Source: an uncultured Clostridia bacterium
Lineage (GTDB): Bacteria > Bacillota > Clostridia > Christensenellales > CAG-917
Direction of reading: 5' to 3'
DNA length: 49,849 nucleotides
Assembly (NCBI GenBank): GCA_947628855.1
Contig: CANRBM010000004.1
Location: 1-49,849, forward strand
In this document: piece after piece, positions 1 through 49,849 of the stretch
Position numbering within the stretch: the first letter of the stretch is position 1
Layout: every line of letters begins with the position of its first letter
Notes under the pieces: generated by a model
What the model was told of the DNA's origin: nothing
What the model saw: only the letters and a program-made list of their open reading frames with translations
The model's database searches: none
Position numbers and translations under genes: made by a program

Positions 1-2087
1 TGTGTCCCGTGTGCGGGGAGCGCTTCTTTGCCCCGGGCGCGGAGGAGCTCGCCTTCAACTCGCAGGGCGCTTGCAAGCGCTGCGACGGTACGGGAGTCGT
101 GCGCATAGTTGACGAGTCTACCCTAGTCCCCGACGAAAACCTCTCCATAGACGAGGGCGCGGTCGCGCCGTGGCAGACGCTGATGTGGTCGCTCATGAAG
201 GACATAGCGCGCGCTATGGGCGTGAGGACGGACGTCCCTTTCAAGGAGCTGACCCCCGAGGAGCGCGACATAGTATTCCACGGCCCCGCCGTCAAAAAGA
301 ATATAATCTATCAAAACAAGACGAGCGGCGCGATGGGCGATATGGATTTCACCTATTTCAACGCCACCTACACCGTTGAAAACGCGCTGTCCAAGGTCAA
401 GGACGAAAAGGGCATGAAACGCGTGGAAAAATTCTTGCGCACGGACGTATGCCCTGACTGCGGCGGGACAAGGCTTTCGGGAGCCGCCCGCTCTCCAAAG
501 CTGAGAGGGCTGTCCCTCGCGGAAGTCTGCACTATGACGCTCACGGAGGCTATAGAGTGGGTGCGCGGCGTGCCCGACTCCCTGCCAGAGGAGATGCGCC
601 CCATGGCAAGGAGCATATGCGACTCCTTTGACGGCGCGGCAAAGCGGCTCATGGATCTGGGACTCGGCTATCTCACCCTCGACCGCGCCTCGTCCACGCT
701 GTCCACGGGAGAAAGGCAACGTATGCAGCTCGCCCGCGCCGTAAGAAATCGCACCACAGGTGTGCTTTACATCCTCGACGAGCCCTCGATCGGCTTGCAC
801 CCATCCAACCTCGAGGGACTCAAAGGCGTCATGGACGACCTCATCGCGGACGGAAATTCCGTCGTGCTCGTAGATCACGACGTAAACGTGCTCAGACACG
901 CCGACCACTTCATAGAGCTGGGTCCCTGCGCGGGCGCGGACGGCGGAGAGATAATCGCGCAAGGCAGCCTTTGCGACATCGAAAATTCTCCCGCCTCCAA
1001 ACTCGGCGGCTTCCTCTCGGGCGAAAAAGTCATAGAGACAGGCGAACATCCATCGTCCGAAGAAATGTTCGCATTTGGCAAAATCGAGCTTTTAACATCT
1101 CAGATCCACACTGTAAAACCCCTGTTTGCGTCAATTCCCAAAGGTAGGATGACCGCGGTGACCGGCGTTTCGGGCTCGGGCAAAACTACGCTCGTGCTCG
1201 AGAGCCTCATACCCGCGCTGGAGGCAAACATCAAGGGCGCGCCCCTTCCTCCGCATGTAAAAAGCGTACGCGCGGACGGCATTGCGCAAGTCAAACTCAT
1301 AGACTCCGCGCCCATAGGCATAAACGTCCGCTCTACCGTCGCGACATACGCGGACGTACACGACGAACTTCGCAAAGTCTTTGCAAAGACCGCGGACGCA
1401 AAAGAGAGAAAACTCAAGGACGGCGATTTTTCATACAATACGGGCAAACTGCGCTGTCCCACCTGCGACGGCACGGGCACGATAAGTCTGGACGTGCAAT
1501 TTTTGCCCGACGTGGACATCCCCTGCCCCGACTGCGGCGGCTCCCGCTACGGCAAAGAGGCAAGCCTCGTGAAACGGACGTCAAAGGACGGAGAGGCGCA
1601 CTCCCTGCCCGAACTCATGGATATGAGCGTGGACGAGGCGCTGAAAGCATGCGACGACCTGCCGCAGGTGAAGCGCAAACTCGGCGTATTGCACGACCTC
1701 GGCTTAGGCTATCTCACCCTCGGCGAGCAGACCCCCGCACTGTCCGGCGGAGAGGCGCAACGCCTCAAGCTCGCGAGCGAAATGGGCAAGGGACAGTCCG
1801 ATACGGTGTTCGTATTTGACGAGCCGACTATAGGGCTGCATCCCCTCGACGTAAAAGTGCTGCTGGGCGTTTTCAACTCTCTCATTCAAAATGGCGCGAC
1901 CGTCATCGTCATCGAGCACGACCTCGACGTCATCAAAAACGCAGACTACGTCATAGATATGGGCCCGGGCGGCGGCGAAGAAGGCGGTAAAATAGTCGCC
2001 ACGGGCACCCCCGCTGAGCTCGCAAACGCCCCCCAAAGCATAACGGGCAAATACCTCAAAGAACACATATCCGCGCGCAAAGAGTGA
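1..2087 (+). CDS. uvrA: UvrA-like ABC ATPase (excinuclease ABC subunit A family, probably the short UvrA2 type); 5' end lies outside the window
   Basis: The frame is open from the window edge (CPVC). CxxC zinc fingers, LSTGERQR and LSGGEAQR signatures, Walker A GVSGSGKT, Walker B DEP, C-terminal SITGKYL. Confidence 0.9.
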   Translation, partial: CPVCGERFFAPGAEELAFNSQGACKRCDGTGVVRIVDESTLVPDENLSIDEGAVAPWQTLMWSLMKDIARAMGVRTDVPFKELTPEERDIVFHGPAVKKNIIYQNKTSGAMGDMDFTYFNATYTVENALSKVKDEKGMKRVEKFLRTDVCPDCGGTRLSGAARSPKLRGLSLAEVCTMTLTEAIEWVRGVPDSLPEEMRPMARSICDSFDGAAKRLMDLGLGYLTLDRASSTLSTGERQRMQLARAVRNRTTGVLYILDEPSIGLHPSNLEGLKGVMDDLIADGNSVVLVDHDVNVLRHADHFIELGPCAGADGGEIIAQGSLCDIENSPASKLGGFLSGEKVIETGEHPSSEEMFAFGKIELLTSQIHTVKPLFASIPKGRMTAVTGVSGSGKTTLVLESLIPALEANIKGAPLPPHVKSVRADGIAQVKLIDSAPIGINVRSTVATYADVHDELRKVFAKTADAKERKLKDGDFSYNTGKLRCPTCDGTGTISLDVQFLPDVDIPCPDCGGSRYGKEASLVKRTSKDGEAHSLPELMDMSVDEALKACDDLPQVKRKLGVLHDLGLGYLTLGEQTPALSGGEAQRLKLASEMGKGQSDTVFVFDEPTIGLHPLDVKVLLGVFNSLIQNGATVIVIEHDLDVIKNADYVIDMGPGGGEEGGKIVATGTPAELANAPQSITGKYLKEHISARKE

Positions 2088-2382
2088 CCTGCGCCGTATT
2101 TGGTATAATTTAAAAATTGATATGGCGTCCCACACTCCGCGCAAGACATAAAATCAAAACAGCGAAAGACCCCGCACGCTGTGTTTTATTGCTTGCATAA
2201 TATATTTTTCAAGCCTGAGCAATAGGAGAATGTATTCCCGCAATTTGGGCAACATCCAAACAAATTCGAACAAAAAAATCTGTCATAAAAATTTGCAATT
2301 TTATAAGCATAAGGTATAAAATCGATTCAGAGATATTGCGTTTTAGTATGGAATTTAATGAAACCAAAAAAAGGAGATAAAT

Positions 2383-2919
2383 ATGAGCATATTCGATGAG
2401 TTAATAAAGTTGGATGAAACGGGAAATATACGTTTTACAAGATGGATAGAATGGCGGCATCGCAGTATAGGCTTAATACATTGTTCTACATGTGTTGCCC
2501 TTGATAAGTGTTGGTTTTTGGATATGAAAAAGCCCAAACACCCTCAACATAACAATTGTCATTGCTATATGGTTCAAATACCTACGCCAAATTGTGACAA
2601 CACAAAAGCGGAATGTCCGTTGGATAAATTCACGGGATACATTTTTGCCGATAAATATTCATGGAATGGAAAGAGAAAATTGTATGAGACGTTAGGTTTT
2701 ACAATTGAAGATGCTACATACCTGAAAAAGGAGTATGAACATCAGGCACAGGCGGAATATTGCAAAGGTAATTATCAACTTGGTAAACTAGATTCAAGAG
2801 GACAAAGAATAAATATCGATATTAAATTTATGCGAAATAACAGGCAAATTGTTTTTACTTCCGGATGGATGGTTAGAGCAAAAGGTCTGATAACAAATAA
2901 TACTCCACTTGGAGATTAG
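2383..2919 (+). CDS. Putative toxin: phage MuF-like Cys/His motif fused to a DUF6883-like C-terminal domain
   Basis: RBS AGGAG. The CxxC...PxHxNCxC motif is typical of the MuF C-terminus. The rest (K-F-x-x-Y, LGF, SGW...LIT) resembles DUF6883 by eye. AT-rich relative to the flanks. Confidence 0.55.
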   Translation: MSIFDELIKLDETGNIRFTRWIEWRHRSIGLIHCSTCVALDKCWFLDMKKPKHPQHNNCHCYMVQIPTPNCDNTKAECPLDKFTGYIFADKYSWNGKRKLYETLGFTIEDATYLKKEYEHQAQAEYCKGNYQLGKLDSRGQRINIDIKFMRNNRQIVFTSGWMVRAKGLITNNTPLGD

Positions 2920-2929
2920 AAGGTGACAA

Positions 2930-3157
2930 ATGAAATATCTTGATTTGGTGGAACTGATCGTAGAAAAGCCGGCATATTTGAAAGCAGGAGTAAAACGTGG
3001 CGATTTTGGAGCTGTTATGTCAAAAGAAGCAATAGACGGCAAATGGCAGGTCGTATTCTCCGAGTTTTACACCGGCAAAGATATTGCGGATATTATGGTG
3101 TATGAAAACGATTTGAAGGTGCACGATTTTGTTCCTTTGGACAGATATCCAAAATAG
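2930..3157 (+). CDS. Small DUF4926-like protein, putative antitoxin or immunity partner
   Basis: 75 aa, starting 10 bp after the upstream ORF. Pattern D-x-V-E-L...G-V-K-x-G-D-x-G-x-V...V-x-F is SH3-like, as in DUF4926. Confidence 0.55.
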   Translation: MKYLDLVELIVEKPAYLKAGVKRGDFGAVMSKEAIDGKWQVVFSEFYTGKDIADIMVYENDLKVHDFVPLDRYPK

Positions 3158-3565
3158 CAATGCATGACGCAAACAATATGTGAAGCGGGGGTCTCCGCCG
3201 CTTCGCAGCCCATACGGGAGCGGTGGCGGCATAGCCGACAGCGGATGCAGCTCCCGCACGCAGAGCGAAAGCCTCTTCTGTTTGTTTATAAATGTATATC
3301 TAACGAGGTCAAACATATAGTTGCTTATCAAAAAAAAGTCGTGAGCGGAGCAACGATTGCGCAAACTGTACGACATAACAAGCGATTTTTTGCTCGGCTT
3401 GTCCGAAATTTGATACCTGTCGCGAGAAATCGCGCATTTTGGAGCGACGCGACGACCGTATGAGAAAACATAATTTTCAAAATTTTTTTGGAGCATTGAA
3501 CAAGCGCGCCGAAAGTGGTATCATCATATTGCCGACATTCTCGGACAAAACTTTCGGAGGCGCAT

Positions 3566-4540
3566 ATGTGCACAGCGGCAACTTTTAAGACTAAGGACTT
3601 TTATTTCGGAAGAAATCTCGATTATGAATACTCCTACAACGAGACGGTGACGGTGACTCCGCGCAACTTCCCGTTCAAATTCCGCGCGGCGGGCGAGAGC
3701 GAGAGCCACCTCGCGATGATAGGCATGGCGTTTGTGCAGGACGGCTACCCGCTCTATTATGACGCGACGAACGAGGCGGGGCTGAGCATAGCGGGGCTGA
3801 ACTTCCCGAGGAATGCGTTTTATCCGCCAAAAGCCGAAAATATGACGAACGTCGCGCCTTTTGAGTTTATCCCCTACATCCTCTGCGACTGCAAAAGCGT
3901 GAAGGACGCGCGGAAAAAACTTGAAAATCTCAACATATACGACGAAAATTTCTCGCCCGCACTGCCCCACTCTCCCCTGCACTGGCTCATATCCGACAAG
4001 GACGAGAGTATAGTCGTCGAGCCTATGAAGGACGGGCTGAAGGTATACGACGATCCCGTGGGCATACTCACAAACAACCCCTCTTTTGATTTTCATATGA
4101 CAAATCTTGCGACCTATCTCAACGTCACGCGCGAGGAGCCCACAAGCCGTTTCGCGCAGGACTTCGCCCTCACGCCGTACAGCCGCGGCATGGGCGCGAT
4201 AGGCCTCCCCGGGGACTTGTCCTCCGCGTCGAGGTTTGTCAAAGCCGCCTTCACAAAGCTCAACTCCATATCGGGGGACGGCGAGGTCGAGAGCGTAAGC
4301 CAATTCTTCCACATCCTCGGCTCCGTAGAGCAGCAGATGGGATGCTGCAGAGTGGAAAAGGGCTTCGAGCATACGATCTACTCCTCTTGTTGCAACGCGA
4401 CGAAGGGCGTCTACTATTACACCACCTACAATAACTCCCGCATAGTCGGCGTGGATATGCGCCGCGAGGAGCCGGACTCCGCCGCCCTCGTCTCCTACCC
4501 CCTGCAAAAACAGACCGAGCTACTCATACAAAATGTGTGA
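3566..4540 (+). CDS. bsh: Choloylglycine hydrolase (bile salt hydrolase / penicillin V acylase family, Ntn hydrolase)
   Basis: Start MCTA after GGAGG, so the catalytic Cys is residue 2. Motifs FGRNLDYE, NEAGL, LTNNP, GLPGDLSSASRF. Confidence 0.9.
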   Translation: MCTAATFKTKDFYFGRNLDYEYSYNETVTVTPRNFPFKFRAAGESESHLAMIGMAFVQDGYPLYYDATNEAGLSIAGLNFPRNAFYPPKAENMTNVAPFEFIPYILCDCKSVKDARKKLENLNIYDENFSPALPHSPLHWLISDKDESIVVEPMKDGLKVYDDPVGILTNNPSFDFHMTNLATYLNVTREEPTSRFAQDFALTPYSRGMGAIGLPGDLSSASRFVKAAFTKLNSISGDGEVESVSQFFHILGSVEQQMGCCRVEKGFEHTIYSSCCNATKGVYYYTTYNNSRIVGVDMRREEPDSAALVSYPLQKQTELLIQNV

Positions 4541-4831
4541 GATATAACGTGCGGCATATAGACTAAAGCATGAAAAGCGTGGGGACTCAGATAAGGCGGA
4601 CGGCGGGTAAGGGGCGCTCGGACGAAGATGATGATATAATTAGTTGCATATTATGTCCCTTTTGTTTTTGAGCGCGTTTTTTTAATATATTGAACTTGCG
4701 TACTTGCAGGCGGGTGGCGCGCGTGGTAAAATGTAAAGGATAAAAATTTTGCGCTATGTCCCGAAACGGCGGCGCCGGCGCCGCAACAAAATAAGCTACC
4801 CGTGAGGATATCGGGACGGGAGAGGGAGTCC

Positions 4832-5779
4832 ATGAGAGACAGAGTCAAAAAAGCGTTGCTGTTGCTCGCGCTGGGCATAACGGTCAATATCGCGCTTGCC
4901 TTCATAAAACTGTACGTGGGGCTTGCCTCGAACAGCCTTACCATCATGCTGGATTCCATAAACAGCTTTTTCGACATCATCACCTGTTTTGTCACGGTGT
5001 TGGCGTTTTGCGTGCTGCTGCGTTTCAAAAGCGAATCCGCTCCCTACGGGTATGGGCGGAGCGAGTATCTTGCGAGCTTTGTCGTCGCGGTCGTATCCTG
5101 CGTCGTGGGCGGGCTGTTTTTCATAAGATCCCTCAATAGAATGGCTATGCCCGAGCCCGTGTGGTTTGGCGTAGAGAGTTGCGTGCTCATCTCCGTGACT
5201 ATACCAATAAAGCTGGGCGTAGGACTTTTTTATCATTTTGCAAACAAAAAATTGCGCTCAAAGGCGCTTGACGCGATAGCTTTGGACAGCTATTTGGACA
5301 CGGCGATAACCTCCGCCACCCTCGTCTCATTTGTCATTTCGAGCAGAGTGGACTATGCCGTGGACGCGATAGTCGGCATGGTCCTAAGCGTCGTCATCAT
5401 AGTGTTCGCCGTGAAAATGGTCGTGGACAGCGTAAAGGCTGTGGTCTCGGGCGACGTGCCGAAGGACGCGGCGGAGCGCATAAAGGACGCGGCAAGCAAG
5501 CTCCCCTGCGTGGAGAGCGTGGACAGCGTGGTCATACACGATTACGGCTACGGCGAGAAGATAGCCTCCGTATGCGTCAAAGTGAAACGCGGCGTTTCCA
5601 TGGAGGACTTCGACGCGCAACGGCAGGAGCTCTTTCAAACCGTCGTGGCGGATCTCAATGAGGAGTATGCGCCCGAGATACAGCTCGTCCCTAAACTTTC
5701 GCAAGAGGAAAACGCGCCCCCATATGACCAAAACGCCGCCTGTGAACAGGACGAAACAACCGAAACCGACGCCGAATGA
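4832..5779 (+). CDS. Cation diffusion facilitator (CDF) family transporter
   Basis: About 6 TM segments, PYGYGRSEY motif, C-terminal cytosolic domain with HDYG. Start moved to the ATG after GGGAG. Confidence 0.85.
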   Translation: MRDRVKKALLLLALGITVNIALAFIKLYVGLASNSLTIMLDSINSFFDIITCFVTVLAFCVLLRFKSESAPYGYGRSEYLASFVVAVVSCVVGGLFFIRSLNRMAMPEPVWFGVESCVLISVTIPIKLGVGLFYHFANKKLRSKALDAIALDSYLDTAITSATLVSFVISSRVDYAVDAIVGMVLSVVIIVFAVKMVVDSVKAVVSGDVPKDAAERIKDAASKLPCVESVDSVVIHDYGYGEKIASVCVKVKRGVSMEDFDAQRQELFQTVVADLNEEYAPEIQLVPKLSQEENAPPYDQNAACEQDETTETDAE

Positions 5780-21706: not shown

Positions 21707-22297
21707 ATGAAACTTATCGACAGCAAAACACTGCTCAACCTCGCAAAGTCCTACGCGGGCGAAATGATGGCGCATGCAAGATATTCCTTTGTGGAGTACG
21801 GCGCGCGCAACGAGGGCTACAACGCCATGGCGGACATCATTGACAAGGTAGTCTACAACGAGTTCAACCATGCGCGCATGCTCTACACCTATATCCAGCA
21901 GGCGTCCAACAAGACCATCGACAACATTGACATCTGCTCCGGCTACCCCTTCCGCGAGAAGTGGAATTTGACGGAAAACCTCAAGCTCGCCGCCGAGGAC
22001 GAGGCTATGGAAGTCAAGACCTACAAGGCGTACGCAAAAACCGCGCGCGAGGAAGGCTTTGAGGAGATCGCGGGGCTTTTCGACAAGATCGCCGGCGTGG
22101 AGACCTGCCACGAAAAGCTGTTCAACGACCTCTACGACCAAATGTCCTCGGGCACGCTCTACAAGAAGGAAAAGGCGGTCAAGTGGAAATGCGCGGGCTG
22201 CGGCTACGAGCAGGAAGGCAAGGAAGCGTGGGATTGCTGCCCCCTCTGCAAAGCAAAACAGGGCTTTGTGGAGTTGCACCTGAACGAGGTCGTGTAA
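21707..22297 (+). CDS. Rubrerythrin
   Basis: NL.KSYAGE..A..RY, NE..HA, E..HE, C-terminal WKCAGCGY...CPLC. Confidence 0.9.
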   Translation: MKLIDSKTLLNLAKSYAGEMMAHARYSFVEYGARNEGYNAMADIIDKVVYNEFNHARMLYTYIQQASNKTIDNIDICSGYPFREKWNLTENLKLAAEDEAMEVKTYKAYAKTAREEGFEEIAGLFDKIAGVETCHEKLFNDLYDQMSSGTLYKKEKAVKWKCAGCGYEQEGKEAWDCCPLCKAKQGFVELHLNEVV

Positions 22298-22395
22298 AAA
22301 CGGCGGAATTTAAAAACTGTTTACGTCAACGATAGTTACAAGTGTACAGTGCTAATTAAAAACTCGATTTGACACATATCACACAGTTTCTATTC

Positions 22396-22427
22396 AAAAA
22401 AAACCGAGGTATTGTCTCGGTTTTTTG
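22396..22427 (+). terminator. Intrinsic terminator after rubrerythrin
   Basis: AAAAAACCGAG-loop-CTCGGTTTTTT. Confidence 0.75.
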
Positions 22428-22621
22428 AATATGTGCGCACAAAATTGTATATCTATCGCTCAACGACAGGGCTCAAATGTGCGATGTCTAACTCCAAAAT
22501 TAAACATCAAAAAACCCGGAATTTTCAAGCGTAGAAAAAATTCTTTATAAAATTACATAATATACTTGAAATTATTATAATTTTGGGTATAATAATTATA
22601 ACAGTAGTGCGGAGGTACAAA

Positions 22622-24013
22622 ATGCAGAAGTTTGTAAATCGAAAAGCGGAACTTGAAACGCTTGAAAAACAGTATAACGGTGAGGCGTCGTCTCTGGTGA
22701 TAGTTTACGGGCGCAGGCGCGTCGGCAAAACAGCGCTTTTGACCGAGTTTTTGCAAGCGCATCGGGACAGCTTATATTTTCTTGCAACTGAGGAATCCGA
22801 AGTCCAAAATTTGAATTATTTCAAAGCGCAAGTTGCACAGTTCACCGGCAACGAGCTTCTTCGCATTGCCGCGGTGGATTGGTATACTGTTTTTAAGACT
22901 CTTGTGGAATTCAAGACCGAGACAAAAAAAATCATTGTGTTTGACGAATTTCAATACATTGGGCAGTCCAACTCGGCATTTCCTTCCATATTGCAAAAAA
23001 TTTGGGACACAATGCTCAAAGACGCAAATATAATGCTTATTTTATGCGGATCGCTCGTGTCGCTTATGAAGTCTCAAACGCTTGACTACGGCAGTCCTTT
23101 ATATGGCAGAAGAACGGCGCAAATAAAGCTGAAACAGATACCTTTCAAGCATTATCACGAGTTTTACGAAGGGAAAACGGACGACGCGCTGTTGCCGTTT
23201 TATGCTGTGACGGGAGGCGTGCCTAAGTATATAGAGACATTCAATGACTATGACGATATTTTCGACGCGATCAAAGAGAATGTACTTAATTCTCAGAGCT
23301 TTTTGTATGAGGAGCCATACTTCCTATTGCAAAAGGAAGTAAGCGAGATCGGAAGCTACTTTTCGCTTATCAAGGCGATAGCCATGGGAAATCGCAAGCT
23401 GTCCGACATCGCCGCAAACTTGGGAGTTAAACAAACAAATTTGACAAAATATCTAAAAGTCCTTATGGACTTGGATCTTGTCGAACGCGAGGTACCTGTC
23501 ACGGAATCCGCTCCGGAAAAGAGCAAAAGCGGACTGTATCGCATAACAGACAACTTCATATCTTTTTGGTTCAAATTTGTTTATCCTTACAGGGCATATC
23601 TCGAAAAAGGCGAGACCGATTACGTTCTCACACAGATAAAAAAGAGCTTCATGCAGAATTTTGTTTCATTTGTCTATGAGGATGTCTGCAGAGAAAAAAT
23701 GTGGGAACTTTCGGCTACAGGCACATGGGATTTCCGTTTTGATAAAGTCGGTAGATATTGGGGCGCGAAATCGAAAGAAACGGACATTGTAGCCATAGAC
23801 ACGCTTGGCAAAAATATTGTTTTGGGTGAGTGCAAATACTCAGTTTCCCCAAAAGGACTATCCGTTTTGCACGATTTGCAAGAAAGAACCGAGGCGCTTA
23901 GGCAACTGATAGGCGCAACAAACGTCTACTACGTATTATTCAGCTCTTCGGGCTTTACGCAAGGTTTGCTTGACGAGGCAGAGACTAATGATGCTATACA
24001 TTTGATAAAATAA
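22622..24013 (+). CDS. Archaeal-type P-loop ATPase with wHTH, DUF234-like region and C-terminal PD-(D/E)XK nuclease motif
   Basis: FVNRKAEL, YGRRRVGKT, VFDEFQ, LCGS, TGGVPKY, DNFISFWF, ETDIVA...GECKY. RBS GGAGG. Confidence 0.85.
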   Translation: MQKFVNRKAELETLEKQYNGEASSLVIVYGRRRVGKTALLTEFLQAHRDSLYFLATEESEVQNLNYFKAQVAQFTGNELLRIAAVDWYTVFKTLVEFKTETKKIIVFDEFQYIGQSNSAFPSILQKIWDTMLKDANIMLILCGSLVSLMKSQTLDYGSPLYGRRTAQIKLKQIPFKHYHEFYEGKTDDALLPFYAVTGGVPKYIETFNDYDDIFDAIKENVLNSQSFLYEEPYFLLQKEVSEIGSYFSLIKAIAMGNRKLSDIAANLGVKQTNLTKYLKVLMDLDLVEREVPVTESAPEKSKSGLYRITDNFISFWFKFVYPYRAYLEKGETDYVLTQIKKSFMQNFVSFVYEDVCREKMWELSATGTWDFRFDKVGRYWGAKSKETDIVAIDTLGKNIVLGECKYSVSPKGLSVLHDLQERTEALRQLIGATNVYYVLFSSSGFTQGLLDEAETNDAIHLIK

Positions 24014-24127
24014 TACTTAAAAAATATCGTAGCAAGCCTGTCATGCTTATTCACTTTTAAAAGCACGATCGGGCATATGTTGAGCAAGCTCCATTTCGCC
24101 TATTTTTTGCGAATACGCCCTCATCGC

Positions 24128-24156
24128 TTGCAAAAACCAAAAACTTATATTATAAT
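24128..24156 (+). promoter_or_regulatory. SigA-type promoter of the tRNA-Ser locus
   Basis: TTGCAA-17 bp-TATAAT. Confidence 0.75.
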
Positions 24157-24173
24157 AGCAAAGCACATTACAA

Positions 24174-24319
24174 GGAAACGTATCGAAGTGGTCTACGGTC
24201 AAGACGCACAGCGTCTCGTCCGCCCCCTTCGTATCAAGATAAAGTATATTATAGGGAAACGTATCGAAGTGGTCGCAAGTTTGAGGCGCACAGCGCCTCA
24301 TTGCTACACCCCGCTACAC
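24174..24319 (+). repeat. Two copies of the tRNA-Ser 5' end (20 bp at 24174, 24 bp at 24255), each followed by a GC-ACA-GC hairpin
   Basis: GGAAACGTATCGAAGTGGTC is identical at 24174, 24255 and 24320. Confidence 0.92.
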
Positions 24320-24411
24320 GGAAACGTATCGAAGTGGTCGCAACGAGCCGCACTCGAAATGCGGTTGACCTGCATAAGGTCACGTGGGTTCGAATCCCAC
24401 CGTTTCCGCCA
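24320..24411 (+). tRNA. tRNA-Ser (anticodon CGA)
   Basis: Acceptor stem GGAAACG/CGTTTCC plus GCCA; anticodon arm CCGCA-CTCGAAA-TGCGG; long variable arm TGACC..GGTCA; T arm GTGGG-TTCGAAT-CCCAC. Confidence 0.95.
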
Positions 24412-24936
24412 AAAAGCACCTGCAAAGGTGCTTTTTGTATAGAAACTGCGGGATTTTTCGATTTGCTCTGCAAATCAAACACAGCTATGCTGTGCGAACC
24501 CCCGTTCCGTGGCTGACCTTTTACCCCATAAAATTCGTTCCACACACTTATCAATTTCTATACAATGTCACGTCGTCACTCATTATTATGGGGACCCCGA
24601 TATCGCTCGGACAATCTTAGCGGTATTACGGCGGCAGTATTTCTGCCGCCTACGAATCCCACCGTTTCCGCCAAAAAGCACCTGCTAAGGTGCTTTTTGT
24701 ATAGAATCGGCGTGATTTTTTGTTTTGCTCTGCAAATCAAACACAGCTATGCTGTGCGAACCCTCCTTCCGTGGCTGACCTTTTACCCCATAAAATTCGT
24801 TCCACACACTTATCAATTTCTATACAATGTCACGTCGTCACTCATTATTATGGGGACCCCGATATCGCTCGGACAATCTTAGCGGTATTACGGCGGCAGT
24901 ATTTGCTGCCGCCTACGAATCCCACCGTTTCCGCCA
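24391..24936 (+). repeat. Two tandem units of 262 and 263 bp delimited by three copies of the 21-bp tRNA-Ser 3' end
   Basis: CGAATCCCACCGTTTCCGCCA at 24391, 24653 and 24916. The units are near-identical and each starts with the terminator-like AAAAAGCACC..GGTGCTTTTT. Confidence 0.93.
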
Positions 24937-24980
24937 AACAAAAAAGTCCTACTGTTGAATAGGACTTTTTTGTTTGTTTT
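24936..24980. terminator. Bidirectional terminator between the tRNA array and the Ig-domain gene
   Basis: AAACAAAAAAGTCCTA..TAGGACTTTTTTGTTT. Confidence 0.8.
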
Positions 24981-24998
24981 TACTCGTGTTGAAAGTTC

Positions 24999-27974
24999 TC
25001 ACTTTCCCTCGTGGAGGTGATCAATGAATTGACTGTTCACGGTGTAGGTGGACATCGGGGTGAGCGAGGAGTCGTTTTTGTAACAATACATGGCGATCTC
25101 AAAGTTTTTCAAAATGTCCAAAACCGTTTTGACATCTTTTGTGATACCGGGGTAGTTGTCGCTGAGTTCACGCGAGTAGATGTGGAAGAAACGGTCATCC
25201 TCAAAGCTGTACCTTGTGAAAGTGCGCTCGTTGGCGACGCCTCCGCCCAAGTTGATGCCGGATGTTATCATCCCGACATGGAAATACCTCGTCTCTATGT
25301 CACCATTTTTCACAGTGTAGACACCGGGGACAAAGGCGGGATGCGAAAACATCGGCTGTACCGCCGTACGTATGATAGAATTGTACTTTTCATCGCCTGT
25401 ATCGATCAAGTTGGCGTCCGTGGCGTTCTGCCAATTGTAGATGTCAAGAAATCCCGTTTGATCAATGCTTGCCACATAGCCCTTGGGAACAAGATTGTCC
25501 TCCACCCATTTGTAGCTTTCTTCCCGCCCTTGTGCTTCGTTGACGGCGGTGGAAAATCTGCCCTTCGTCCCGTCGAGAGCAAAACTTTCATGAGATGTGC
25601 TGACACTGACGGATATGACGGAGGAGAATACGCAATTGTTGAGGTTCAACCTTGAAAAACAGAAGTTGAACTCATTTTCATTCGCGCCTTCGGGATTTCG
25701 CGTCCTCGCATAATCATAGATTGCCGTAGCCGAAATGTTGCGGAAAAGGCAGCCGTCTATGATGCCATCCATGTTGTCGATCTCTATGCCGCCATGCGAG
25801 TTTTCAAAAATGCAATACTCCAATTTGACATTTGTAAGGCGCTCCATATCGTCGTTTTCGCTGCAAACAATGAGACAATAGGAATATTCGAAGGTGTGGC
25901 TGTCAAGCTTGTCCGGTTGGAAATTCTCATGTCTTATCGTCACATTGCTGACCGTAACATCACTGCTGGCAACGCGCACATCATAACTTGCCCAGCTGAT
26001 AAGGTTTTGAGGCATGGTTGAGATCATGTGGCCGTTGCCGTAGAGGTCGCCGTACAATATGATACATCTGTTCGCATCGCCATAATCAATGGTCAGGTCT
26101 TCGGCGGCTTCGATGTCGTTGGCAAGAGTTATAGCAAAGTTGCCCGCGGGACGCTCCGCTTCTACGACGCGGAATTGTTTGTTGTTGACGTCAAATGAGT
26201 CAATGATAGTGCCTTCAAGTTTTTCTTTGTCGCCGAATGCATACTTCCTTTGATCTTGTCCCGCGCGCATGGCTTGCTCGAAAGTGAAGACGTGGACGCC
26301 GTACACGACATTGAGCGTCACATACGCCGTAGTGTGTTCGCTGTTCGTCTCAAAGCGCGGGTATTTTGCATGAGCCATGACTTTGACGGGCACTATGCCC
26401 TTGCCCTCGAGTGCGGCGGCGTCAATCACGAACATATTGGGATATTCTTCATCAAAATGCGCGTACTCCTTGCCCTCGACAACTTCAAAGTGGAAATCTT
26501 TGTAGAATTGCGCCTGCTCGTCTTCATCCTCGGGCTCGCCCTGCAGATGTATGAATACGGTGTTGGGGAGCTTTTCAAACTTGTCGGCGCCCTCCTCCGC
26601 CGTGAGATATTTGTACTTGTAAGAGGCGTATACCGTCTCGCGCGCAAGACCCGTACGGAGGGATGCGTCCGACGTCTTGAGCCTGAGCAAAGATACTTTG
26701 TTGTGGACATTTATCTCCAAGCTCGCCGACTTTGCGCCCGCTCTTGAATTTACGGTAGCGGTGATGATCGCGACACCGTTTGAGACGCCTTTGACATTGC
26801 CCTCTGCATCGACTGTTGCGACTTGCTTATTGTTTGAGTCCCAACTCACTTGAGGTTTGCCCTCGGCAGCCGTAGCCGCAAACGAGGCGGAAAGTTTAAG
26901 CCCGCGCTCGCCGATGTCGAGCACGTATCCGCCCTCTTTGCCTACAAATATATCGGCATGATCAATGACGATCGCGCCCTGCTCGCATATATCGACGGTA
27001 AGGACTTTCCCATTTCTCAGCGCGACCGTCGCGGTCTCGCCGTTTATGACTATGCCATCCGACTGCACCGTACAATTCTCGCTTGCCGCCTCGTCAACGT
27101 CCGCCGCCGAAATGCCGAGCTTGTCAAAGGGATACTTGCCGCCATCCACTCTTTCGAGCGTCACTTTGTTGCCGTATCTGCTTGCGCCCTCGCCAACCGT
27201 GACATTGAATTCGTTGCTGGGGACAAATTCTTTTTCTTTGCCTTCGTCCTCGCTGTATTTGCTTGCCAAAGCGCGCACAGTAGCGCTTCCCGTGCTTTTG
27301 GCCGTAATAACGCCGTTTGCATCGACAAAAACGACATCGGGAGCACTGCTTTCAAACTTAAGTTCCTCTACTTTGCTGTCGAGCGGGACGAATGCGGCGC
27401 TGAGGAGCATGCTCTCGCCCACGGTCAAATTTGTTTGAGTGGCGCCCTCTGTATCTGTGAGAGTGACCCTTGCCACCGTGGAGCCGACTATGTTGACTGT
27501 AAACGTCTTGTTGAAAGTCTCCGCACTGACAGTGACTTCAAAACTGCAGTAGGCGTACAGCCTGAATTTGCCCGATGTGTTTGTTGTTCCCTCGTGCCCG
27601 TAGCCGCTGCCATCGATGAGTACTGCCGCGGGATAGACCGGAGTGCCGACAGGATTGGCTTCATATTGTTCATATTTCTGTTGATACTCGCTGTCGGAGC
27701 ATTCCAAGTTGCTCAAAGCCCAATCAACGGTCTGATTTGCCTTTTCGGGATAGACGAGCACTTGAACAAAGTCGTTGAAGTCATATATCGCGTTTTCATC
27801 GACGTCTATGACGGGTTGCAAGAAGTTTACCTCTTTGCCCGTGAGCTTGTCCGTAACGGTCAGACTTTCAACGGCTACCCACGCTTGAAGTTGCAACATA
27901 TTCGTGACGAGCGCGACGACGAGCAATATAATGATAGGGATAAGGATCAATATACCGATAAGTACTTTTTTCAT
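24999..27974 (-). CDS. Large exported or surface protein with bacterial Ig-like (Big_2) domains and a probable C-terminal beta-helix
   Basis: N-terminal signal/TM segment; Big_2 motifs FESSAPDVVFVDANGVITAKSTG and WDSNNKQVATVDAEGNVKGV; LYGNGH and repeated xCxFxN beta-helix-like pattern. Confidence 0.75.
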   Translation of the reverse strand: MKKVLIGILILIPIIILLVVALVTNMLQLQAWVAVESLTVTDKLTGKEVNFLQPVIDVDENAIYDFNDFVQVLVYPEKANQTVDWALSNLECSDSEYQQKYEQYEANPVGTPVYPAAVLIDGSGYGHEGTTNTSGKFRLYAYCSFEVTVSAETFNKTFTVNIVGSTVARVTLTDTEGATQTNLTVGESMLLSAAFVPLDSKVEELKFESSAPDVVFVDANGVITAKSTGSATVRALASKYSEDEGKEKEFVPSNEFNVTVGEGASRYGNKVTLERVDGGKYPFDKLGISAADVDEAASENCTVQSDGIVINGETATVALRNGKVLTVDICEQGAIVIDHADIFVGKEGGYVLDIGERGLKLSASFAATAAEGKPQVSWDSNNKQVATVDAEGNVKGVSNGVAIITATVNSRAGAKSASLEINVHNKVSLLRLKTSDASLRTGLARETVYASYKYKYLTAEEGADKFEKLPNTVFIHLQGEPEDEDEQAQFYKDFHFEVVEGKEYAHFDEEYPNMFVIDAAALEGKGIVPVKVMAHAKYPRFETNSEHTTAYVTLNVVYGVHVFTFEQAMRAGQDQRKYAFGDKEKLEGTIIDSFDVNNKQFRVVEAERPAGNFAITLANDIEAAEDLTIDYGDANRCIILYGDLYGNGHMISTMPQNLISWASYDVRVASSDVTVSNVTIRHENFQPDKLDSHTFEYSYCLIVCSENDDMERLTNVKLEYCIFENSHGGIEIDNMDGIIDGCLFRNISATAIYDYARTRNPEGANENEFNFCFSRLNLNNCVFSSVISVSVSTSHESFALDGTKGRFSTAVNEAQGREESYKWVEDNLVPKGYVASIDQTGFLDIYNWQNATDANLIDTGDEKYNSIIRTAVQPMFSHPAFVPGVYTVKNGDIETRYFHVGMITSGINLGGGVANERTFTRYSFEDDRFFHIYSRELSDNYPGITKDVKTVLDILKNFEIAMYCYKNDSSLTPMSTYTVNSQFIDHLHEGK

Positions 27975-49594: not shown

Positions 49595-49849
49595 CCCTAT
49601 CAAAAAACAAAAGAGCGCGATTGCGCTCCTCTGTTTCAATGTTTTGGTTCTTTGATTATTGCTCGCTGATCGCGCCGACGGGGCAACCGTTTTTTACCCC
49701 ATAAAATTCGCTCCACTCAATTTGCATTTCTACAAAACTTTACATCGTCTCTCATTATTATGGGGCCCCCAAATATCACCCGGACCGACTTTTCGTTTCG
49801 GTTGCCCCTATACAAAAAACAAAAGAGCGCGGTTGCGCTCCTCTGTTTC
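49595..49849. repeat. Direct repeat (period 212 bp) of a minus-strand terminator, truncated by the window end
   Basis: CAAAAAACAAAAGAGCGCG(A/G)TTGCGCTCCTCTGTTTC at 49601 and 49813. Confidence 0.85.
49656..49688 (-). pseudogene. 3' remnant of a ferredoxin-like gene
   Basis: The minus strand reads G-C-P-V-G-A-I-S-E-Q-stop. The upstream part is replaced by a repeat element. Confidence 0.5.

Follow-up and report, generated by a model that had tools for sequence, protein, structure and literature searches.

The tRNA-Ser(CGA) locus and its leader

We have found that the gene for tRNA-Ser(CGA) in an uncultured Clostridia bacterium, the sole gene with a CGA anticodon in the assembly, is preceded by two leader units, each of which begins with a copy of the tRNA's own 5' end. 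The gene lies in the window, by which we mean the whole stretch of 49,849 nucleotides analysed here (contig CANRBM010000004.1 of assembly GCA_947628855.1, forward strand), and the array is flanked by an ATPase gene (PF01637/DUF234) upstream and a convergent gene for a Big_2 surface protein downstream. The features of the region are as follows.

24128..24156, + strand: promoter-like site TTGCAA-17-TATAAT (promoter scan, 10/12 matches)
24174..24254, + strand: leader unit 1, "type A", 81 nt, with the copy of tRNA nt 1-20 at 24174-24193
24202-24216, + strand: apex of unit 1, AGACGC-ACA-GCGTCT, preceded by the left arm
ending at 24231, + strand: right arm of unit 1, ...CCCCCTTCG
24232-24254, + strand: A/T-rich spacer of unit 1
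24255..24319, + strand: leader unit 2, "type B", 65 nt, with the copy of tRNA nt 1-24 at 24255-24278, then GTT
24282-24300, + strand: hairpin of unit 2, TGAGGCGC-ACA-GCGCCTCA, then TTGC, which pairs with GCAA
3' of this TTGC, + strand: tail of unit 2, TACACCCCGCTACAC
24320..24411, + strand: tRNA-Ser(CGA) (ARAGORN; Rfam, 57.6 bits)
24410..24437, + strand: terminator hairpin of tRNA-Ser(CGA), a 12-bp stem and a T run (inverted-repeat search)
24391..24938, + strand: 262-bp tandem repeat of 2.1 copies, a separate feature (repeat search)

The 20-mer GGAAACGTATCGAAGTGGTC occurs in three copies (24174, 24255 and 24320, at spacings of 81 and 65), of which the third alone is tRNA-Ser(CGA) and the first two are the leader units; identity to the tRNA start extends over 20 nt in copy 1 and 24 nt in copy 2. 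An earlier note on this DNA had described this triplication behind one TTGCAA-17-TATAAT, had recognised a tRNA only in the third copy and had placed all three inside the predicted transcript. These points hold: the repeats are found again on re-reading the sequence, ARAGORN and Rfam both place tRNA-Ser(cga) at 24320-24411, and the copies fall within one promoter-to-terminator unit in the promoter and terminator scans. The two hairpins to which the note drew attention, with their shared ACA loop, are likewise present, the A-T to G-C exchange between them being the fourth pair from the loop. The promoter scan returned no second promoter-like site on the + strand upstream of the tRNA, within or adjoining the units, and the terminator scan no + strand site between promoter and tRNA; we infer that the array sits in the promoter-to-terminator transcript predicted for tRNA-Ser(CGA). 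The leader (24157-24319) has no match in Rfam 15 at E<=1, and a search of 22000-27000 gave only the tRNA and sub-threshold hits at chance level.

The array is genuine sequence and no assembly artefact. Contigs from four public DNA runs (two studies) carry the junctions of promoter with unit 1, of unit 1 with unit 2 and of unit 2 with the tRNA, so that the repeats are borne out; the junction between the units (24174-24274) shows 0 differences in the independent contigs, and since the two units differ, their order is determined.

Downstream, the 262-bp units, which the earlier note does not mention, each begin with the last 21 nt of tRNA-Ser (24391, 24653 and 24916). They also hold a terminator, the tRNA 3' end once more as an inverted copy that has decayed, and a module of ~95 bp. 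Copies of this module lie at 24520-24615, 24782-24877 and 49692-49785 in the window, and it is dispersed elsewhere, both in the source genome, hereafter G000 (contigs C95, C26, C18, C109, C36 and C14), and, many times over, in G007 and G016.

Anatomy and folding of a unit

The units share a common plan, in which tRNA nt 1-20/24 are followed by a left arm, a 3-nt loop ACA, a right arm and an A/T-rich spacer. The left arm still resembles tRNA nt 21-33 (GAGGCGCAC versus GAGCCGCAC), and the right arm repeats tRNA nt ~6-33 in inverted, diverged form. Compared with the reverse complement of nt 1-34 of their own tRNA, the right arms of 25 of 29 units gave p<=0.024 (0.014 for unit 1 and 0.01 for unit 2 of the window), as against p<=0.05 in just 3 of the 29 when they were compared as direct copies of the tRNA 3' part, all of these being single-test figures over units that are related by descent. 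Clade-specific differences in the tRNA are mirrored in the inverted arm in alignments. Because the part beyond the tRNA-identical start is an inverted copy, the unit folds back on itself, and because the right arms match the inverted tRNA, a unit consists of a direct and then an inverted copy, with the next direct copy after it. The 14 nt that end just ahead of copy 2 are similar to the promoter-proximal leader in front of copy 1, so the repeated segment took in some of the leader as well.

We also considered a unit to be a whole tRNA copy that had been deleted internally and kept a 3'-end tail. This is mostly rejected, given the direct match in 3 of 29 units, though one unit of the related genome G011 (unit 3) does hold a good copy of the tRNA 3' end (p 0.002). 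In one clade, the first 7-8 nt of the unit pair with an acceptor-3'-like GCTT(G/A)CC in the manner of a minihelix, the sequence continuing GCCAAC in one G011 unit. The first 6 nt of both window units are unpaired in their folds, and so there is no acceptor-like stem there.

The fold of unit 1 has an energy of -20.8 kcal/mol (z -2.3, with 7/200 shuffles as good) and that of unit 2 one of -23.9 kcal/mol (z -3.4, 0/200). Across 19 representative units, arms paired with their own partner at -19.95 kcal/mol and with swapped partners at -16.44 kcal/mol, with 0 of 10,000 permutations as good. When a hand-set structure was laid over the units, 80.6% of cells were paired, compared with 31-47% when that structure was slid, and five pairs change on both sides, giving a covariation of 0.186 versus 0.111 in shuffles (0/500). 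The covariation that the earlier note had read from the two window hairpins is thus supported by both the arm-swap test and the test on the hand-set structure. These tests were used in place of MAFFT and RNAalifold since the arms align poorly and that procedure recovered just the apical 5 pairs.

Selection on the fold of the sense RNA is nonetheless unsupported, because the antisense strand is the more stable in 54 of 68 hairpins, the units being related; the sense strand folds better in 14 of the 68 hairpins and in 13 of the 68 whole units. The window units themselves reach -25.9 and -29.0 kcal/mol in antisense, versus -20.8 and -23.9 in sense. When leader and tRNA are folded together, copy 1 pairs with the acceptor 3' strand of the tRNA in the minimum-energy structure, and it is thermodynamically possible, as far as such a model goes, that the copy competes for that strand.

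Distribution and turnover of the arrays

The pattern of a tRNA start, 40-75 nt and a second tRNA start is present in 36 of 52 genomes of the genus (1-4 matches each); a second genus has it in 2 of 12, and the other 14 genera of the family in none of 44. A control with the reversed pattern gave 0, against 38 of 108 family genomes for the pattern itself, which excludes chance. We read the tRNA-Ser(CGA) locus in 25 genomes of the genus, two of the loci being cut by contig ends, and found that unit number varies between species: G006, G022, G048 and G059 have none, G005 has one decayed unit, and the rest have 1-4. Where relatives lack units, the homologous leader, with TATAAT and AGCAAAG, directly precedes the tRNA; where they have units, it precedes the first of these. 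A synteny comparison found no conserved flanking genes around tRNA-Ser(CGA) in relatives; the cassette of promoter, array and tRNA moves as one piece.

Units within a genome tend to be alike. Beyond nt 20, units are 90-98% identical in four of the five within-genome pairs compared and 70% identical in the fifth (G023). The two units of G000 are only 48% alike over the same part, and each has an orthologue elsewhere, unit 1 being 84% identical to a unit of G016 and 78% to one of G061, and unit 2 being 89% identical to a unit of G007. It follows that two old unit types have been kept in G000, and the earlier view that the array is not one recent tandem duplication is supported. Of 33 units, 29 match the tRNA of their own genome exactly over the first 20 nt, even where the tRNA has changed: in a second clade the tRNA starts GGAAGTG (GGAAGCG in G013 and G045) rather than GGAAACG, and so do the leader copies. 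Apart from the apex and the tRNA-identical part, unit sequence diverges rapidly. These comparisons show that the array is inherited within the genus, numbers 0-4 units, is homogenised in each genome and follows changes in the tRNA acceptor stem.

The phenomenon is not confined to one tRNA. Four of the 33 testable tRNA genes of G000 have leader arrays (Ser-CGA with 2 units, Ser-GGA with 3, Leu-TAA with 3 and Pro-CGG with 1), and in all four the complement of the copy's D-arm region is found 3' of the copy. Of the 42 genus genomes with a match to Ser-GGA, 23 align over 70 nt or more ahead of the tRNA. Ser-GGA has 1-4 units in 13 of 13 loci read and Leu-TAA has units in 11 of 13, counts that are biased upward because these loci were the best matches to array-bearing queries; the GCCGATG and GCCGGAA acceptor variants of Leu-TAA are mirrored in its copies. 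We note that most relatives also share a stretch with ...GGTTTTGTTTTCCATTGGCTTCCAACTGCCACCCACTTGTAA... that lies ~60-110 nt upstream of the first Ser-GGA unit (L039-L052), between a strong promoter-like site and the array.

An exact-pattern scan of one genome per species (185,579 species) returned 48 stretches, of which we read 14, and 11 of these 14 come from other Clostridia. The records include Anaerotignum neopropionicum DSM 3847, Caproiciproducens sp. R1, Acutalibacter and Ruminiclostridium MAGs, an uncultured Oscillospiraceae MAG and a Bacillota MAG. Their unit, which again precedes tRNA-Ser(CGA), is simpler: 77-80 nt long, it copies tRNA nt 1-~42, through the anticodon loop, often with a short fold-back, and in many of them the spacer ends in an AAAAYTGAATA-like sequence. 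Most of these loci, read by eye, have a strong promoter-like sequence upstream of the first copy. At L140, the locus of Caproiciproducens sp. R1, resident tRNA and leader copies are not the same. An uncultured Clostridia record (L100) has at least 6 units of 87 nt, each of which starts with 18 nt of a tRNA-Ser start and contains GACCACTT, the inverse of AAGTGGTC, and upstream lies a perfect inverted copy of tRNA nt 1-29.

A short motif, ACT(T/G)AAT, recurs in 14 of 68 distinct units, in the spacers of three different tRNAs' arrays, compared with 0 of 29 upstream regions of array-less tRNA genes and 0.4% of random AT-rich 30-mers. It spans arrays of different tRNAs and of different orders of Clostridia, which hints, as far as a sequence pattern can, at a sequence-specific partner. 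Often the motif is part of AAAACTTAATA or AAAAYTGAATA and stands 0-12 nt before the tRNA-identical start; it occurs in unit spacers at, for example, L004, L039-L047 and L081-L090, and also at L103, L106, L121 and L136-L138. We note, too, that each unit of G011 (L018, 1726-2000) has an antisense promoter-like TTGACC-17-TATTGT, with ATGACC-17-TATAAT at the tRNA start. The scan found no antisense promoter-like site in the units of the window.

Other repeats of tRNA sequence were seen on the 3' side of tRNA genes. An inverted copy of the T-arm or acceptor 3' strand lies just after the terminator of tRNA-Ser(CGA) in relatives (G006, G061, G011, G004, G015, G017 and, at L066-L077, members of a second and a third genus), and in G000 also at Asn, Trp, Ser-GGA, Arg-ACG, Leu-TAG and Thr-CGT genes. 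Such a copy would extend the terminator stem into the tRNA, mirroring the fold-back on the 5' side. Elements of ~185-380 bp are bounded on one side by a complete tRNA (Arg-CCT, Ala-CGC, Val-CAC or Leu-GAG) and on the other by a direct repeat of its 3' part, beginning in the T-loop (contigs C2, C9, C17, twice, C95 and C109 of G000; L035-L038). They share a right end, ...GCTCCGCTGT(A/T)A.., and have an inverted T-loop copy after the tRNA's terminator, and from their sequence they look like miniature integrative elements. On contig C90 of G000 (1293-5387), tRNA-Gly(GCC) is followed by two tyrosine-recombinase genes, and this region is probably a classical integrated element. G000 holds eight tyrosine-recombinase genes in all, and one Y1-transposase-like gene.

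Origin, possible roles and relation to known systems

The reading that we favour, with a confidence a little above even, is that of a co-transcribed leader array that arose by fold-back partial duplication and was amplified and homogenised by slippage, with no dedicated trans-acting role. Template switching during replication would have produced a partial duplication of the leader and the 5' third of the tRNA in direct-inverted-direct order. The identical 20-24-nt segments would then undergo slipped-strand or unequal exchange, by which units would be gained and lost, and the same exchange would keep the copies identical to the tRNA. The array would be transcribed with the tRNA and removed by the RNase P cut at the true 5' end, while the hairpin would hold the decoy D-arm segment paired with the antisense arm and so leave folding of the tRNA undisturbed. 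The creation and repair of hairpins by template switching is a published mechanism (PMC8794818). Near-identity of the units within a genome, in four of the five pairs compared, is the outcome expected of local amplification. The earlier note had offered serial insertion of a tiny hairpin element as an explanation, and this did not survive: the 15-17-mers at the apex of Ser-CGA, Ser-GGA and Leu-TAA units are confined, within the genome, to their own arrays, which rejects a dispersed hairpin element; the right arm is an inverted copy of the tRNA; and the pattern is one of local amplification. We also asked whether the arrays were permitted by loss of SbcD, a hairpin nuclease. SbcD was found in none of the 25 genus genomes searched, but a search of 16 other families of the order likewise failed to find it in 11, and so it does not discriminate.

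Several observations sit uneasily with a passive leader. The arrays persist at four tRNA genes, in most species of the genus and in genomes of 1.3-1.9 Mb, and a by-product without function would not obviously do so. The recurrent spacer motif, with its hint of a sequence-specific partner, is a second such observation. The arms may covary because the hairpin is under selection, rather than through template-switch repair; the reading does not account for the better folding of the antisense strand; and the L140 copies, which are unlike the resident tRNA, look more like the result of replacement by incoming DNA, to judge from their sequence.

It is possible, although we think it unlikely, that the units are functional leader RNAs, either small structured RNAs or cis modules that tune the maturation or stability of a single-copy tRNA. 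They would be released by RNase P at starts that form an acceptor-like stem, by RNase III in the stems of ~20-26 bp, or by both, and the genome does encode RNase III and an RNase P RNA (239.9 bits). The minihelix-like pairing of the first 7-8 nt in one clade would suit such release, but the window's units have no acceptor-like stem; the covarying stems speak for a selected structure, but the sense strand is the poorer folder. Recurrence of the spacer motif, the conservation of units at several tRNAs and across 36 of the 52 genomes of the genus, their wide occurrence in Clostridia and their persistence in small genomes all speak for functional RNAs, and one study reports that three tRNA-linked repeats (TLRs) of E. 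coli yield RNAs that bind Hfq and CsrA in vitro (PMC8144298). Less easily accommodated are the four genus genomes in which an intact locus has 0 units, the one in which the unit has decayed, and the fast divergence outside the tRNA-identical part and apex.

A bolder proposal, which we consider doubtful, is that the units or antisense transcripts of them are widespread, undescribed leader-encoded structured RNAs, a 5' counterpart of the TLRs that steers tRNA supply. The tRNA-identical start and the conserved spacer motif would then direct processing, and the RNAs would either regulate how much of a single-copy tRNA is made available or titrate a factor that handles tRNAs, with the same principle at work across several orders of Clostridia.

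We hold it to be improbable that the units are footprints of miniature integrative or mobile elements that inserted into the tRNA gene at a point past the D-loop but before the anticodon loop, each restoring the tRNA with its own copy of the 5' part, in mirror image of the T-loop mini-elements at 3' ends. The anticodon loop is a classical crossover site, and at L121, L137 and L140, three of the loci outside the family, the copy breaks in or just after that loop and gives way to an unrelated stretch, which at L121 and L140 runs for ~180-200 nt before a complete tRNA that, at L140, differs from the copies. The same genome, moreover, houses the ~185-380-bp elements with 3' copies of Arg, Ala, Val and Leu tRNAs and the eight tyrosine-recombinase genes, and arrays of different tRNAs have ACT(T/G)AAT in common. 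The 41-61 nt between the window's repeats are, however, too little in our judgement for a recombining circle. The arrays have no shared core other than tRNA sequence, their apex sequences being unique to each locus; adjacent units of one genome hardly differ, and the copies follow the host tRNA; and no integrase is adjacent, the flanks being the ATPase and Big_2 genes.

Very little speaks for tandem promoters, in which each unit would bring its own start site and more units would mean more tRNA. The spacers are A/T-rich and have -10-like strings, such as TATTAT before copy 2, and the end of a unit resembles the promoter-proximal leader, but such strings in the window stand 0-3 nt from the first base of a copy and none is found in the spacer of unit 2. 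A scan of G000, G011 and the Ser-GGA array of G004 found no sense sigma-70-like site inside the units, the sole sense promoter-like site in each lying upstream of the first unit. An artefact of assembly or repeat collapse, which might be suspected of a 122-contig metagenome-type assembly when contigs of relatives often end inside such arrays, has next to no likelihood, with the junctions recovered from the four runs of two studies and orthologous arrays in dozens of genomes.

Leaders of tRNA genes are usually treated as short throw-away sequence, and here they hold conserved hairpin modules of variable copy number, made from the tRNA itself, that evolve in concert with it at several tRNA genes and also in cultured Clostridia. 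If the arrays are neutral, nature has kept in them a clean record of how fold-back template switching and slippage act on highly transcribed genes, and they also give rise to tRNA fragments that are mis-annotated. If instead they have a function, they add a 5' counterpart to the E. coli TLRs, which have been largely unexplained since 1978, and would point to a hitherto unknown layer of control over single-copy tRNAs. The simpler forms in Anaerotignum neopropionicum DSM 3847 and Caproiciproducens sp. R1 make this a question that can be tested at the bench.

The arrays bear some likeness to several known systems. Split or permuted tRNA genes also present a stand-alone 5' piece of a tRNA followed by a structured, G+C-rich stretch. 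To our knowledge, bacteria lack the splicing endonuclease; here, unlike in split genes, an intact tRNA-Ser(CGA) follows the units and no orphan 3' half is needed. REP and BIME sequences, which are linked to RAYT transposases, are likewise imperfect, clustered palindromes in non-coding DNA, and one Y1-transposase-like gene is present in this genome, but REPs form dispersed families with a shared sequence, whereas each leader hairpin is confined to its own locus and made from the tRNA next to it. Integrative elements reportedly leave attachment-site duplications in tRNA genes, usually repeating the 3' part of the gene. The leader units resemble these in that a partial tRNA copy stands beside the intact gene as a direct repeat; attachment-site duplications, however, flank kb-scale elements that bear an integrase, and here the repeats are 41-61 nt apart, with no adjacent integrase, in copies that are tandem and homogenised.

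The direct-inverted-direct order of the leader is also that of bacterial tandem inversion duplications. Template-switch hairpins likewise arise in one event as a reverse-complement copy of adjacent sequence that forms a near-perfect stem (PMC8794818); 25 of 29 right arms match such a reverse complement (p<=0.024), and the likeness extends to the direct-inverted-direct order and to multi-base "compensatory" changes. Template switching as described there is a general mutational process, however, and here its product would have been retained, amplified and spread widely.

We found no published description of copies of tRNA genes in their 5' leaders, although the supplementary fragment tables of one survey might hold examples; its main text attributes tRNA gene fragments to integration and CRISPR and nowhere uses the words "upstream" or "leader" (PMC9897764). 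Of the known cases, the E. coli TLRs come closest; according to PMC8144298, they comprise 22 units at ten loci in which 18-19 bp repeat the 3' end of an upstream tRNA or rRNA gene, as in rtT of the tyrT operon and in rrA, rrB and rrF after 5S rRNA, their function being mostly unknown. As in the leader arrays, these repeats lie in stable-RNA transcription units, one to five to a locus, with an identity to the gene end of 18-19 bp compared with 20-24 bp here. Unlike the TLRs, which are downstream copies of a 3' end, the leader units are upstream copies of a 5' end with an added inverted copy that yields a fold-back hairpin, and so the TLRs are their 3'-side mirror image; it is the 262-bp units at 24391-24938, on the other side of the same tRNA gene, that do have the downstream, 3'-end layout of the TLRs described there.
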